Virus record (IMG/VR): IMGVR_UViG_3300045988_116818
Span: 1 to 44,812 of that record
Length of the DNA stretch: 44,812 nucleotides
Reading direction: 5' to 3' (one strand)
From: a virus
Position 1 is the first letter of the stretch. Every line of letters starts with the position of its first letter. The notes beneath the pieces are model-generated. The model saw only the letters and a list, made by a program, of their open reading frames with translations, searched no databases and had not been told where the DNA came from. This document shows, one piece after another, positions 11,189 to 42,991 of this stretch. The translations under genes were made by a program, and so were the position numbers.

Positions 11189-11344
11189 CTTTTCATCATC
11201 TCAAAAATATAAGGCGGTAATTCCCACAAAAGTGGGAGCAGAAAAGTCAATGTATGGGAAAATGGGAGTGTGGGGGCGTATCTCTGCACTCCCACTCCTT
11301 TTCCCCTCTGCCCGGAGGTTCACCTCCGCCTCCGGGCCTCCTAT

Positions 11345-11423
11345 GCCCTTGTAGCCCAGTAGGTAGAGCGGCCCAGGAATATGGGTGATTGAAGCGTCGC
11401 CGGTTCGAGTCCGGTCAAGGGCA
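11345..11423 (+). tRNA. tRNA-like cloverleaf with an aberrant anticodon arm (possible pseudo-tRNA or part of a larger ncRNA)
   Basis: Acceptor GCCCTTG/CAAGGGC is a perfect 7 bp. The D arm GCCC-AGTAGGTA-GAGC and T arm GCCGG-TTCGAGT-CCGGT are canonical. The anticodon stem GCCCA/TGGGT closes only 6 nt (GGAATA) with no U33. The variable region is 12 nt. Confidence 0.4.
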
Positions 11424-11746
11424 AATTTATACCCTTTTGGGGAACTAGATAAGCTGCTCCAAAGGCCACGGAGCTGGCAGTGGAAAGACACTATACCGGT
11501 AAGCCTACAGCGTCTGATGGAACCGGAGAAGAGACATGACGCCCGCCTGTCATGGAGGCGGAAGCGGTGGCAGCTATGACCTGCCCCGAAATGCGGGGTC
11601 GCTCCCATCCGTGGAAGCCGGACGCTTGTGTAGGGCGATAACTACCAGCGCTATCCCGCTGAAAACTGCCGTAGGACAGTGAAACTCCGAATGGAATGTA
11701 GCTGACTGATTGATGGTGTGACAATTTAAGCGAGAAGCGCACATAT
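11424..11746 (+). ncRNA. Structured spacer between the two cloverleaves (candidate core of a large phage ncRNA)
   Basis: There are no credible ORFs. Hairpin CATGAC/GTCATG (11535-11554) has loop CCGCC (11543-47) complementary to GGCGG (11557-61). A second hairpin is CCCCG/CGGGG (11584-98). Confidence 0.35.
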
Positions 11747-11820
11747 ACGGGTGTAGCTAAATGGAGAGCGCCGGTCTCCAAAACCGGAGGTTGGGGGAAC
11801 AGAGCCTTCCACCCGTGCCA
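11747..11820 (+). tRNA. tRNA-Trp(CCA)-like gene with a non-canonical T loop
   Basis: Acceptor ACGGGTG/CACCCGT is a perfect 7 bp. Anticodon arm CCGGT-CUCCAAA-ACCGG gives anticodon CCA at 11778-80. A 3' GCCA is encoded. The T arm GGGGG-AACAGAG-CCTTC has two G-U pairs and no TTC. Confidence 0.5.
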
Positions 11821-36117: not shown

Positions 36118-36708
36118 ATGAACAAGACCATCAACGAGATCATTAACAATTACACCAGTGGCAAGACTCCCGTGGGGGACACCAACAAGGCACTGAAAGA
36201 GGCCGGTGCTGGATTTTCCTTTCAGCCTGGAAAGAATGCCCTGACGGCTGAGGAGATCGCCGCCACCAAGGTCGGCGCCCGGCCCGGCGACGTGACCGGC
36301 TATGGCCTGATGTCCAGCGGCACCGGTACGATGGACAAGGTACATGTCGTAAAGGGAAAGCTGCAGGGCGGCGCTATCAACATGGTTGGCTCCGATGGTA
36401 TGCCTAATGAATGCGATATTGTCTATATTGGCGGTCAGGTGTGGCAGGTGTACGGTGACGAGCTGGGCAACCTTGCGCCTGAGAAAGCTCCCTGGTGGGC
36501 CTCCATGCACACCTTCACCGGCGCTGTCGCGTGGCAGGAGGAGATCGACAAGTACATCCCCGAACAGGATATGGTGTACAACCGGCCCAAGTATCACGGC
36601 CAGGAAGTGGTGAAGGGCGCTCTGCGGTACATCTACGCTGAGGACGGCTCCTGCAAGTATCAGCCCAAGTCTATGGCGGATTACGACAAGGACCACGGCA
36701 GGAACTAA
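36118..36708 (+). CDS. Hypothetical protein between the tail and lysis modules
   Basis: 196-aa ORF with a GAAAGGAAG RBS. The overlapping 296-aa minus-strand ORF is judged a shadow. Confidence 0.6.
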   Translation: MNKTINEIINNYTSGKTPVGDTNKALKEAGAGFSFQPGKNALTAEEIAATKVGARPGDVTGYGLMSSGTGTMDKVHVVKGKLQGGAINMVGSDGMPNECDIVYIGGQVWQVYGDELGNLAPEKAPWWASMHTFTGAVAWQEEIDKYIPEQDMVYNRPKYHGQEVVKGALRYIYAEDGSCKYQPKSMADYDKDHGRN

Positions 36709-36715
36709 TTGAAAA

Positions 36716-36733
36716 GCCGCCCATCCAGGCGGC
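36716..36733 (-). terminator. Hairpin GCCGCC-catcca-GGCGGC with a U-tract only on the minus strand
   Basis: The minus strand reads GCCGCCtggatgGGCGGC followed by TTTTC. This is a possible distal stop for the antisense RNA from 37023-37050. Confidence 0.4.
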
Positions 36734-36738
36734 GAAGA

Positions 36739-36767
36739 TTGACACAAAGCGGCGCTTTTGGTAGAAT
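36739..36767 (+). promoter_or_regulatory. Near-consensus promoter TTGACA-17-TAGAAT driving the peptide mRNA/leader
   Basis: TTGACA at 36739-44, a 17-nt spacer, TAGAAT at 36762-67. Confidence 0.6.
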
Positions 36768-36844
36768 AAACCTGCCCTGAAAAGGGCCCTGGGCGCTGTT
36801 GTATACGGCGGTTAGCTACTCCCCCAAGAAAGGGGGTGAGGCCG

Positions 36845-36919
36845 ATGGGACATGGGCGCTGGATGAAAGTCTGGCGGTTCCTGGTGTGTTTACTCATAGT
36901 CCTTTGGATTATGATTTAA
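36845..36919 (+). CDS. 24-aa hydrophobic peptide, candidate type I toxin
   Basis: Manual translation: MGHGRWMKVWRFLVCLLIVLWIMI. The SD-like GAAAGGGGGTGAG lies 9 nt upstream, and its GGGGG (36831-35) can pair with CCCCC (36821-25). Confidence 0.4.
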   Translation: MGHGRWMKVWRFLVCLLIVLWIMI

Positions 36920-36924
36920 TATCC

Positions 36925-37016
36925 CCAAAAGCGTGTTAGCCGCTCGGATGGTCCCCGAACGGCTAACGTGAGTTAGTTATGCAGAGGGGCTAACCGTCAA
37001 ACAACAGCGCCCTTGT
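36925..37016 (-). ncRNA. Candidate antisense (antitoxin-like) sRNA convergent with the peptide mRNA
   Basis: Predicted from the minus-strand promoter 37050-37023 and the hairpin 36932-36970, which is followed on the minus strand by CTTTTGGGG. Confidence 0.4.
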
Positions 37017-37022
37017 ACATTC

Positions 37023-37050
37023 ATTATACCAAATCAAGCCGCTTTGTCAA
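37023..37050 (-). promoter_or_regulatory. Consensus extended -10 promoter on the minus strand (TTGACA-16-TGgTATAAT)
   Basis: The minus strand reads TTGACA (37050-45), aagcggcttgatttgg, then TATAAT (37028-23) with TG at -15/-14. Confidence 0.6.
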
Positions 37051-37069
37051 GCACGACAGGGCGGCTTTT
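37036..37069 (+). terminator. Plus-strand-specific intrinsic terminator just upstream of the holin RBS
   Basis: AAGCCGCTTTGTC-aagcac-GACAGGGCGGCTT forms a 13-bp stem, including 2 U-G pairs that would be mismatches on the minus strand. TTTT follows. Confidence 0.55.
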
Positions 37070-37092
37070 GTGCTGCCCGGAAAGGAAAACAC

Positions 37093-37296
37093 ATGGAGCT
37101 TTTGAAGAAACGGCTGTCAAACCTGCTGGCCGTCAAGAGCATTGTCACGGTAATTCTCACGGCGGTGTTCGCCTACCTGACCTGTACCGACGGCGTGACG
37201 GCAGAGCAGTTCCTCACCGTATTCACCGTGGTGATCGCATTCTACTTCGGTACCCAGGCCGAAAAGCGCAACTCCGGGAGTGATGGAAATGCCTGA
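37093..37296 (+). CDS. Holin (two-TM)
   Basis: 67 aa with two hydrophobic helices (VKSIVTVILTAVFAYL, FLTVFTVVIAFYFG) and a charged C-terminus. It overlaps the endolysin start. Confidence 0.8.
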   Translation: MELLKKRLSNLLAVKSIVTVILTAVFAYLTCTDGVTAEQFLTVFTVVIAFYFGTQAEKRNSGSDGNA

Positions 37297-42587: not shown

Positions 42588-42616
42588 TTGACATTACTCT
42601 AAAAATACTCTATAAT
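42588..42616 (+). promoter_or_regulatory. Perfect consensus promoter TTGACA-17-TATAAT (early rightward)
   Basis: TTGACA at 42588-93, a 17-nt spacer, TATAAT at 42611-16. The spacer and -10 element contain two TACTCTA(A/T) motifs. Confidence 0.7.
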
Positions 42617-42683
42617 TAGTCTTGCAATAGGGCGCAAAAACCCGTCCACCCCGAGATACAGAAGGGTGAATATGAAAGGCGTG

Positions 42684-42711
42684 TACTCTAACTTGTAGCA
42701 AAATTAGAGTA
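42684..42711. promoter_or_regulatory. Candidate operator palindrome TACTCTAA-N12-TTAGAGTA
   Basis: The half-site TACTCTAA also occurs at 42595-602, 42606-613 (TACTCTAT) and 42740-747. Confidence 0.5.
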
Positions 42712-42763
42712 TCACAGTTTGGAGTAGTTGTCAACGGAATACTCTAATTTAGGAGGTGATATT

Positions 42764-42991
42764 TTGTCGTTTGCTGAAAATCTCTCTGTCTTGCAAGCCA
42801 AGCACAGGGAAACAAACTACCGGTTAGCAAAGGAAATTGGCGTACATCAATCCTCTATTGCCAACTGGAAATCCGGAGTAACCCCGCACCCCAGGCATAT
42901 TCGTATAGTGGCAGAGCATTTTGGCGTAACTGTAGACGAGCTTCTTTCAGAAGACAGCAGCACCAACGGAGAAAAGGAAGCCCTCCAATGA
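42764..42991 (+). CDS. Cro-like XRE-family HTH protein (TTG start)
   Basis: AGGAGGTG lies 5 nt upstream of TTG 42764. NYRLAKEIGVHQSSIANWKSG is an HTH motif. Confidence 0.8.
   Translation: MSFAENLSVLQAKHRETNYRLAKEIGVHQSSIANWKSGVTPHPRHIRIVAEHFGVTVDELLSEDSSTNGEKEALQ

Follow-up and report, generated by a model that had tools for sequence, protein, structure and literature searches.

A stretch of viral DNA of 44,812 nucleotides (IMG/VR record IMGVR_UViG_3300045988_116818, positions 1 to 44,812; hereafter the window) was analyzed, and positions 36712-37072 were identified as what is very probably a self-contained, horizontally mobile type I toxin-antitoxin (TA) cassette ("moron"), carried by a temperate phage with a Clostridia host (Oscillospiraceae). 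We consider it just as probable that the cassette represents a previously unannotated, widespread new family of this known kind of system. The cassette, present in a single copy, fills the gap between the last structural-region gene and the holin, and at the sequence level it combines the generic features of type I TAs: a small peptide encoded on its own mRNA, a cis-antisense promoter and restricted access to the Shine-Dalgarno (SD) sequence. An initial annotation of the same DNA had proposed a type I TA-like module at this place. That proposal was strengthened by a conserved open reading frame (ORF), covarying RNA helices, an antisense promoter recovered without bias and a layout like that of bsrG/SR4; the annotation had missed that the window carries a truncated allele, that the cassette belongs to a large family with exchangeable ORFs, and that bsrG/SR4 is its close analogue.

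The plus strand of 36772-37075 was predicted to fold with an energy of -137 kcal/mol (z = -7.2, with 0 of 100 shuffles as good), and the minus strand of the same region gave z = -5.5. All helices named in the initial annotation are held in the plus-strand minimum-energy structure (Table 1). By inverted-repeat search, the 12-bp long-range helix that it had reported (36791-802 with 37001-12) was 100% complementary and an inner helix (36809-21 with 36984-96) was 85% complementary over 13 nt, these being the outer and inner arms of a clamp helix termed P1; the hairpins 36935-47/36955-67 (SL3) and 37036-48/37055-67 were recovered by the same search. Sequestration of the SD by a run of C, also claimed at the outset, was found in the fold and is conserved, with the GGGGG located at 36832-36836 rather than one position earlier (36831-35). 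In relatives this hairpin is kept, with covariation, as CCCCC/GGGGG, CCUCC/GGAGG or UCCC/GGGA variants. The hairpin at the 5' end, likewise as annotated, is probably a stabilizer of the mRNA.

Covariation was assessed in an alignment of 33 non-redundant elements (<95% identity). The consensus fold of these elements recovered both arms of P1, the SD hairpin and SL3, with 95% of the cells being standard pairs, and an SD at the correct spacing was always present, the mean unpaired probability of SD plus AUG being about 0.22. Double-sided changes were observed at 18 pairs, as against 5-9 when the partner column was slid by 1-3 positions. Taken helix by helix, changes of this kind were seen at 5 of 9 pairs in the P1 outer arm, 7 of 9 in SL3 and all five in the 5' hairpin (96% standard pairs), which is missing in some family members; for these three helices the numbers exceeded all or nearly all of 300 shuffles, and no shuffle equaled SL3. 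A control scan, anchored on the end of the family-A ORF (see below) and leaving the P1 arms free, returned nine new loci with compensating arm changes, from CGGTTAGC/GCTAACCG to CGGTCAGC/GCTGACCG or CGGTTGGC/GCCAACCG, the words concerned being TTAGC/GCTAA, replaced by TCAGC/GCTGA or TTGGC/GCCAA. The nine loci also showed TTGT/ACAA changed to TTGC/GCAA, and the G-C pair 36795/37008 changed to A-T. G-U pairs in relatives, several of them in these nine loci, are compatible with the plus strand only, and therefore P1 is taken as a helix of the mRNA.

Two further observations concern the 5' part of the mRNA. Codons 3-6 of the ORF (ACATGGGCGCTG, 36850-36861) are 92% complementary to the P1 3' arm region (37005-37016), and the motif GG[GA]CGC[TCG]GG recurs in long family-A members; judging from complementarity, these codons could be an alternative partner of the clamp strand. 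Longer 5' untranslated regions (UTRs) are found in loci L083, L110, L111, L181 and L207, where an insertion of 60-80 nt separates the two arms of P1 (outer and inner) and/or the real SD is preceded by another SD-like hairpin.

The 24-aa ORF reported at 36845-36919 is present, but it proved to be a truncated allele of a 31-aa peptide ending in YISPKAC. Relatives carry one extra C (TTTACATATCC vs TTTAATATCC) and read ...ATG ATT TAC ATA TCC CCA AAA GCG TGT TAG, whereas the window is without the C of TAC, so that a TAA arises and YISPKAC is lost. The deletion allele is shared by the window and three metagenome contigs (L112, L160, L189), the intact 31-aa allele occurs in about seven independent contigs, and L015 carries an independent 2-nt frameshift in the same ORF. 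Despite the truncated peptide, the RNA elements of the window cassette are all intact.

We surveyed the ORFs of 124 distinct full elements. A small ORF was called automatically after the SD in 118 of them, about 17 of these calls being in the wrong frame (L083, read by eye, has a GTG-started family-B ORF); the six elements left without a call comprise four toxin-less halves, one frameshifted element and one with an altered SD. Most calls fell into three families that have no mutual similarity. Family A, to which the window belongs, comprises 29 distinct peptides of 24-33 aa with the pattern M-G-x-G-R-W..LRF-x-V-C...Y-I-x-P-K-A-C, and has a basic N-terminus and a hydrophobic core. Family B (28-30 aa) follows M-V-T-Y-[DSE]-x-L-F...C-K-R-K. 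Family C (25-30 aa) follows M-P-I-T-L-T-F-H-I...T-V-T-I-R-V-K-S-R-N-R-H-S-x-K, ends in ...TVTIRVKSRNRHS.K and does not look transmembrane. Searches of Pfam, NCBIfam and PHROGs with the window peptide and family A gave no relevant match, and exact look-ups of related peptides returned a few database entries, each named "hypothetical protein".

Length differences within family A are whole codons. The family stop codon, located in the SL3 5' arm, is TAG, TAA or TGA and never TGG, and the opposite base compensates: pair 36938/36964 is G-C in 19 and A-T in 14 elements, and pair 36939/36963 is A-T in 26 and G-C in 7. It is on ORF integrity, in-frame indels and this switching of stop codons, and not on the ratio of nonsynonymous to synonymous substitution rates (dN/dS), that the argument for coding rests, and together they indicate that the ORF is coding.

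Both promoters given in the initial annotation were present with the spacing stated there (Table 1). In the 44.8-kb window the pattern TTGACA-N16-18-TANAAT occurs three times vs 0.03 expected, and two of the three occurrences are the cassette promoters. When relatives were aligned, the toxin promoter was more variable and further from the consensus than the antisense promoter, with TTGACA, TAGACA or TTGACT as -35 and TAGAAT, TATGAT, TAAAAT and others as -10. The -35 of the antisense promoter, which reads TGTCAA on the plus strand, was invariant in 33 of 33 elements although no search pattern required it, with a spacer that varies freely. In order to remove the ascertainment introduced through its -10, a scan was run with a pattern taken from the 5' half of the cassette only. 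It gave 20 new matches; one lay in a coding region and had matched by chance, and among the 19 genuine elements a perfect TTGACA-N16-18-TATAAT was present in 16, with a single -10 mismatch in the other three. This result points to an antisense promoter whose conservation does not depend on the way in which the elements were retrieved.

The peptide-mRNA terminator described at 37036-69 was not flagged by a simple scan, but its 13-bp stem followed by UUUUGUG was found in the minimum-energy fold, and relatives retain this hairpin, with 86% standard pairs, across GCCGC/GCGGC, CCCCG/CGGGG and CCUCCG/CGGAGG variants of the stem. At the opposite edge, the A-run and hairpin of 36712-36733 occupy the same position in every relative inspected, with no U-run on the plus strand, and this terminator would keep antisense transcripts from running on into the phage late genes. 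An inverted-repeat search also showed that the cassette ends are near mirror images of each other (36712-36770 vs 37020-37069), with the matches AAAAGCCGCCC = GGGCGGCTTTT, ACAAAGCGGC = GCCGCTTTGT and TTTGGTAGAATAAA = TTCATTATACCAAA; to judge from these repeats, each promoter-terminator unit looks like an inverted copy of the other.

The antisense promoter lies inside the 3' UTR of the mRNA, and the predicted antisense RNA runs first through the complement of the P1 3' strand, then the linker and then SL3, so that its 5' end mimics the 5' arm of the mRNA. The computed energy of the antisense/mRNA duplex is -211 kcal/mol. Hairpins were found at both of the sites that had been suggested as antisense ends. 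At the proximal one the U-run begins 4 nt past the stem (ACGCUUUUGG), which is not a textbook terminator in family A; this terminator is canonical in family B and weaker in A and C. The Lys codons just ahead of the stop provide the U-run that follows SL3 on the antisense strand. If the proximal hairpin leaks, a long form of about 305 nt ending at 36712 would be made.

No part of the cassette varies more than the linker, which forms the middle of the antisense RNA (seen also in L001, L043, L202, L203, L208 and others); between the window and L001 the linker is identical at only 6 of 22 positions although the ORF is identical at 82 of 84. The linker copy of the SL3 5' arm (GTTAG, GTTAA or GTTGA) changes together with SL3. 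An exact 5-mer copy is present in 10 of the 33 elements vs 2.9 in partner shuffles, and the duplex of the SL3 3' arm with its own linker has an energy of -6.8 vs -5.1 +/- 0.28 for shuffled partners. This suggests that the copy forms an alternative hairpin, which on the antisense RNA would compete with the terminator stem. IMG genome 2919961391 contains two viral contigs, each with a cassette (L001/L037 and L026/L040), that encode an identical 31-aa peptide and differ in SL3 and linker, which fits a diversification of antisense specificity between co-resident prophages. In four toxin-less remnants (L091, L109, L124 and L168), the 5' half from the promoter through most of the ORF, with the clamp 5' arm and the SD, is deleted or replaced, while SL3, linker, P1 3' arm, antisense promoter and terminator are retained; the search patterns required the antisense -10 and thus cover remnants of this kind only.

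The distribution of the cassette was followed in 35 IMG/VR loci fetched via the 196-aa protein encoded upstream, 33 of which had a readable downstream region. Ten of the 33 related phages carry the cassette (L001, L002, L015, L021, L026, L027, L029-L032), and in the other 23 the holin follows the upstream gene directly. Scans with conserved-DNA patterns found it in 42 IMG/VR contigs and in at least 120 metagenome contigs, mostly from human gut. It is also carried by one Dysosmobacter (Oscillospiraceae) metagenome-assembled genome and by one unannotated GenBank record ("Bacteriophage sp.", human faeces). A strict pattern run against a genome collection returned a single genome, being too narrow to describe the host range. 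The initial annotation had called for a search of related phages, and the outcome was a conserved ORF, more than 100 distinct elements with three peptide families, and helices that covary.

The cassette is found ahead of a holin (L203), an endolysin (L127), a tail protein (L202) or a phrog_23092 homologue (L049), and between tail tube and XkdN-like chaperone genes in L067 and L208. Relative to the longest flanking ORFs it was co-oriented in 18 cases, opposed in 13 and placed between convergent genes in nine. Such varied positions in both orientations argue for an autonomous, optional and mobile module and not for a leader of the lysis genes. No Rfam family matched the window cassette at gathering thresholds over the window, and a search of 36600-37200 at E <= 10 gave chance-level hits only; our literature searches found no description of this cassette family.

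In the mechanism that we propose, the near-consensus plus-strand promoter would produce an mRNA of about 300 nt, the 5' segment of which (36791-817) would pair with the 3' segment (36988-37012) to form the clamp, with the SD locked inside in its hairpin and basal translation thereby kept low. The minus-strand promoter would launch an antisense RNA over the P1 3' strand, the linker and SL3, and this RNA would be the antitoxin. Its main action, by analogy with bsrG/SR4 and txpA/RatA, would be a duplex of about 90 bp with the 3' region of the mRNA that leads to RNase III-dependent decay, while the outer terminators would insulate the unit on both edges. The clamp and the 5' hairpin would make the mRNA long-lived. 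If the prophage were lost or antisense synthesis stopped, the stable clamped mRNA would outlast the antisense RNA and the membrane peptide would harm the cell, the outcome being prophage maintenance and/or abortive defence.

Of the known systems, bsrG/SR4 of the SPbeta prophage of Bacillus subtilis is the close analogue; together with txpA/RatA of the skin element it represents the TxpA/BsrG type I TA family. The structure of bsrG mRNA (296 nt) has been probed: P1 is formed by nt 1-35 and nt 232-262 and opens into the branches SL1-SL3, the SD being in a short stem of SL1 and the stop codon on the 5' side of SL3, and the terminator SL4 comes after P1 (PMC3834814). SR4 is complementary to SL3, the P1 3' half and SL4, and it acts through RNase III-dependent decay of bsrG mRNA and through extension of the SD stem (PMC3834814). 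The cassette shares with it a toxin mRNA of about 300 nt, a long P1 closing a multi-branch structure, an SD in a short stem, a stop codon in the SL3 5' part and a terminator directly after P1, as well as a convergent antisense RNA over SL3 and the P1 3' half and carriage by a prophage (PMC3834814, PMC6563280). The predicted fold thus reproduces the bsrG/SR4 plan almost point for point.

There are also differences from bsrG/SR4. The antisense promoter of the cassette lies between P1 and the terminator loop, which leaves the mRNA terminator uncovered, and the antisense RNA has a predicted length of about 94 nt, compared with 183 nt for SR4. The host belongs to the Clostridia (Oscillospiraceae) and not to the Bacilli, and the cassette RNA has no Rfam match. 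In the window the SD stem extends when the antisense target is blocked in the model. Across the 33 elements, SD/AUG accessibility was 0.24 unpaired with the target blocked vs 0.22 free; a tightening of the SD lock by antisense binding was consequently dropped as a family-wide mechanism, and the translation-control half of the bsrG/SR4 mechanism, with its antisense-induced extension of the SD stem, is thus unsupported here.

With respect to the peptides, family A is dissimilar to BsrG and TxpA and shorter (31 or 24 aa vs 38 or 59 aa), and neither the window peptide nor family A matched Hol_Tox, the Pfam family of these two toxins (PF16935; hhalign probability 0.6%). Family B shares with BsrG and TxpA a (V)TYEEL N-terminal motif and a KKK end. 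Its peptides scored 19.8 and 18.2 bits against Hol_Tox, below the cut-off of 23.3, compared with 34.5 and 31.3 bits for BsrG and TxpA; hhalign of family B with the BsrG/TxpA family gave a probability of 61% (E = 8e-5). Family B thus appears weakly similar to these toxins.

Type I TAs of Gram-positive bacteria are typically located on prophages, and the Clostridia systems covered in a 2019 review are those of C. difficile only, with toxins of 34-59 aa, many of them prophage-borne (PMC6563280). CD0977.1/RCd11, CD0904.1, CD0956.2/RCd10 and others share with the cassette a Clostridia host, a prophage setting and a small hydrophobic toxin with a cis-antisense RNA (PMC6563280), and two articles propose a prophage-stabilising role for the C. 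difficile type I TAs (PMC6563280; PMC7699646). Their toxins are 34-59 aa long with a charged C-terminus, and no sequence relationship to the cassette peptides was found, though the sequences were not compared directly. The initial annotation had also cited hok/sok, which is a loose analogue. In hok/sok and AapA1/IsoA1, long-range pairing of the 5' and 3' ends probably stabilises the full-length mRNA and limits its translation, with the SD sequestered, and the antisense RNA is directed against the 5' or translation-initiation region of a 3'-processed mRNA. The antisense RNA of the cassette would instead target the 3' region including the clamp strand, and the toxins are unrelated; the window peptide has no Pfam Hok match, and the antisense promoter lies at the 3' end.

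We tentatively propose, at somewhat less than even probability, that the family is a "plug-and-play" type I TA chassis. One RNA frame, made of two mirrored promoters, the P1 clamp, the SD hairpin, the antisense gene and outer insulating terminators, would have had its payload swapped repeatedly among at least three unrelated peptides (A, the BsrG-like B, and C), with SL3 and linker diversifying fastest into specificity groups and the linker hairpin setting the ratio of short to long antisense RNA. The fastest divergence of SL3 and linker, even beside near-identical toxins, suggests specificity or incompatibility groups among co-resident prophages.

Several observations weigh against the type I TA reading as a whole. 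The roles of toxin and antitoxin were assigned from sequence; family A has no detectable similarity to any known toxin in Pfam, NCBIfam, PHROGs or by hhalign; and the 24-aa allele of the window retains only about 13 uninterrupted hydrophobic residues and may be attenuated or dead as a toxin. The proximal antisense terminator of family A is non-canonical, and in the modelling of the 33 elements blocking the antisense target caused no systematic change in SD/AUG accessibility. Family-A dN/dS is about 0.7, which is weakly informative for such short peptides and might be expected for a short membrane peptide. Finally, some search patterns prescribed the P1 3' arms GCTAACCG and CAGCGCCC as well as the antisense -10, and the conservation of these in the subsets concerned is partly ascertainment.

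The alternative that survives best, possible but clearly on the doubtful side of even, accepts the family as type I TA and holds that the window copy is a disabled remnant whose peptide, having lost YISPKAC, no longer kills; the antisense gene would be left together with an inert mRNA, and might still confer immunity against related toxins. The recurrence of the deletion allele beside intact ones, the separate frameshift of L015 and the existence of antisense-only halves are what this explanation would lead one to see, but most of the hydrophobic segment survives in the truncated peptide along with the basic N-terminus, lengths of 18-30 aa occur among known type I toxins, the intact RNA control elements suggest a continued need and the same allele recurs in several samples.

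Unlikely, by comparison, is an antisense-controlled gene for a small membrane protein without a TA role, which would serve, expressed from the prophage, for example in superinfection exclusion or as a modulator of holin or lysis timing. The peptide is hydrophobic and the cassette lies just upstream of the holin in the window and L203, and of the endolysin in L127, yet it is found between tail genes and in either orientation as well; three unrelated peptides on one chassis fit any toxic payload better than a single partner-binding role, heavy locking of translation, combined with a convergent antisense promoter that is the stronger of the two, is a hallmark of type I TAs, and family B resembles BsrG/TxpA. 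We see very little room for a structured non-coding RNA or an element like a miniature inverted-repeat transposable element, with the ORF incidental: such a reading would accommodate the very stable fold (z = -7.2), the quasi-palindromic ends and the mobility, but the ORF is kept in three unrelated families with in-frame indels and switching stop codons, the SD always stands at the correct spacing, Rfam gives no match and the window holds one copy. The non-coding-RNA and inverted-repeat readings were rejected on context, orientation and ORF conservation, as was the weakest of all, the antitermination or transcriptional-interference gate for the lysis cassette (PR'/tR' style) or read-through leader that the initial annotation had offered as its alternative, and which is hardly tenable: a constitutive-looking promoter, about 300 nt of structured RNA and a terminator do stand immediately upstream of the holin, where late transcription must pass to reach the lysis genes, but 23 of 33 close relatives have the holin abutting the upstream gene with no cassette, the cassette occupies non-lysis positions in both orientations, a lambda-type leader requires a fixed co-oriented position and the conserved ORFs have no role in the model.

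Table 1. Predicted features of the type I TA cassette and its neighbourhood in the window
Feature	Position	Strand	Remarks
Minus-strand intrinsic terminator	36712-36733	-	Hairpin GCCGCCTGGATGGGCGGC then UUUUC; left cassette edge; flagged by terminator scan
Toxin-mRNA promoter	36739-36767	+	TTGACA-17-TAGAAT, TG upstream; 11/12 consensus; start predicted near 36774
5'-terminal hairpin	36774-36787	+	GCCCUGAAAAGGGC; minimum-energy fold; predicted mRNA 5' end
Clamp helix P1, 5' strand	36791-36817	+	Outer arm GGGCGCUGUUGU, inner arm CGGUUAGC; fold and covariation
SD-sequestering hairpin	36819-36840	+	CUCCCCC (36819-25) pairs with GGGGG (36832-36) in SD GAAAGGGGGUGAG (36828-40)
Small ORF, 24 aa	36845-36919	+	MGHGRWMKVWRFLVCLLIVLWIMI; TAA at 36917-19; ancestral stop TAG at 36937-39
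Predicted antisense (antitoxin) RNA, short form	36923-37016	-	About 94 nt; start inferred from promoter 37023-37050
Hairpin SL3	36935-36967	both	mRNA: 5' arm holds ancestral stop; minus strand: proximal terminator-like hairpin, then ACGCUUUUGG
Hypervariable linker	36968-36988	both	Central part of antisense RNA; partial SL3 5'-arm copy GTTAG at 36972-76
Clamp helix P1, 3' strand	36988-37012	+	GCUAACCG ... ACAACAGCGCCC; inside antisense RNA gene; fold and covariation
Antisense promoter	37050-37023	-	TTGACA-16-TGgTATAAT; perfect, 12/12 consensus
Peptide-mRNA terminator	37036-37072	+	13-bp stem enclosing antisense -35, then UUUUGUG; minimum-energy fold, inverted repeat 37036-48/37055-67
DUF6273/glycine-rich structural protein			Neighbour of cassette
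Small conserved phage ORFs			Neighbours of cassette
196-aa phrog_23092 protein	36118-36708		Immediately ahead of cassette
67-aa membrane protein, phrog_13256	37093-37296		Holin position, just after cassette
Amidase_3 endolysin			Same neighbourhood
Integrase		opposite	Same neighbourhood

As for the phage context, the plus-strand terminator at 37036-37072 separates the holin and endolysin from the phage late genes, and in L067 and L208 a co-oriented cassette stands between tail tube and tail chaperone genes. With a terminator ahead of the lysis genes or between tail genes, late transcription must read through it, by antitermination or because the terminator is leaky. Elsewhere in the phage region there are two tRNA-like genes on the plus strand (11344-11424 and 11747-11817; Rfam scores of 41.5 and 49.8 bits, respectively), of which ARAGORN reported the first only, with an odd anticodon loop. 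The third consensus promoter of the window, TTGACA-17-TATAAT at 42588-42616, lies in an AT-rich stretch past the integrase, upstream of an 87-aa ORF (42728-42991) whose translation, read by itself, resembles a helix-turn-helix (HTH)/Cro-type regulator. A second cassette had been considered at 42588-42830 on account of this promoter and a CGGTTAGC word, and was rejected, the gene being apparently that of an unrelated HTH-type regulator; 42588-42991 is probably a lysogeny-switch region of this or a neighbouring element, unrelated to the cassette.

Annotation pipelines miss nearly all type I TAs, and only a handful of model species have had theirs characterised. By its sequence, the cassette family described here can be recognised in human-gut contigs, well over 100 in number, from phages and prophages of Oscillospiraceae (Dysosmobacter among them), and it could serve gut prophages in stabilisation or defence. 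More than 100 natural variants provide material for studying the evolution of clamps in toxin mRNAs, of SD locks and of antisense specificity, and the compact parts of the cassette might be reused in the engineering of RNA devices. If the plug-and-play chassis is true, the bsrG/SR4 architecture would go back to an ancient scaffold shared across the Firmicutes and would not be peculiar to Bacillus.

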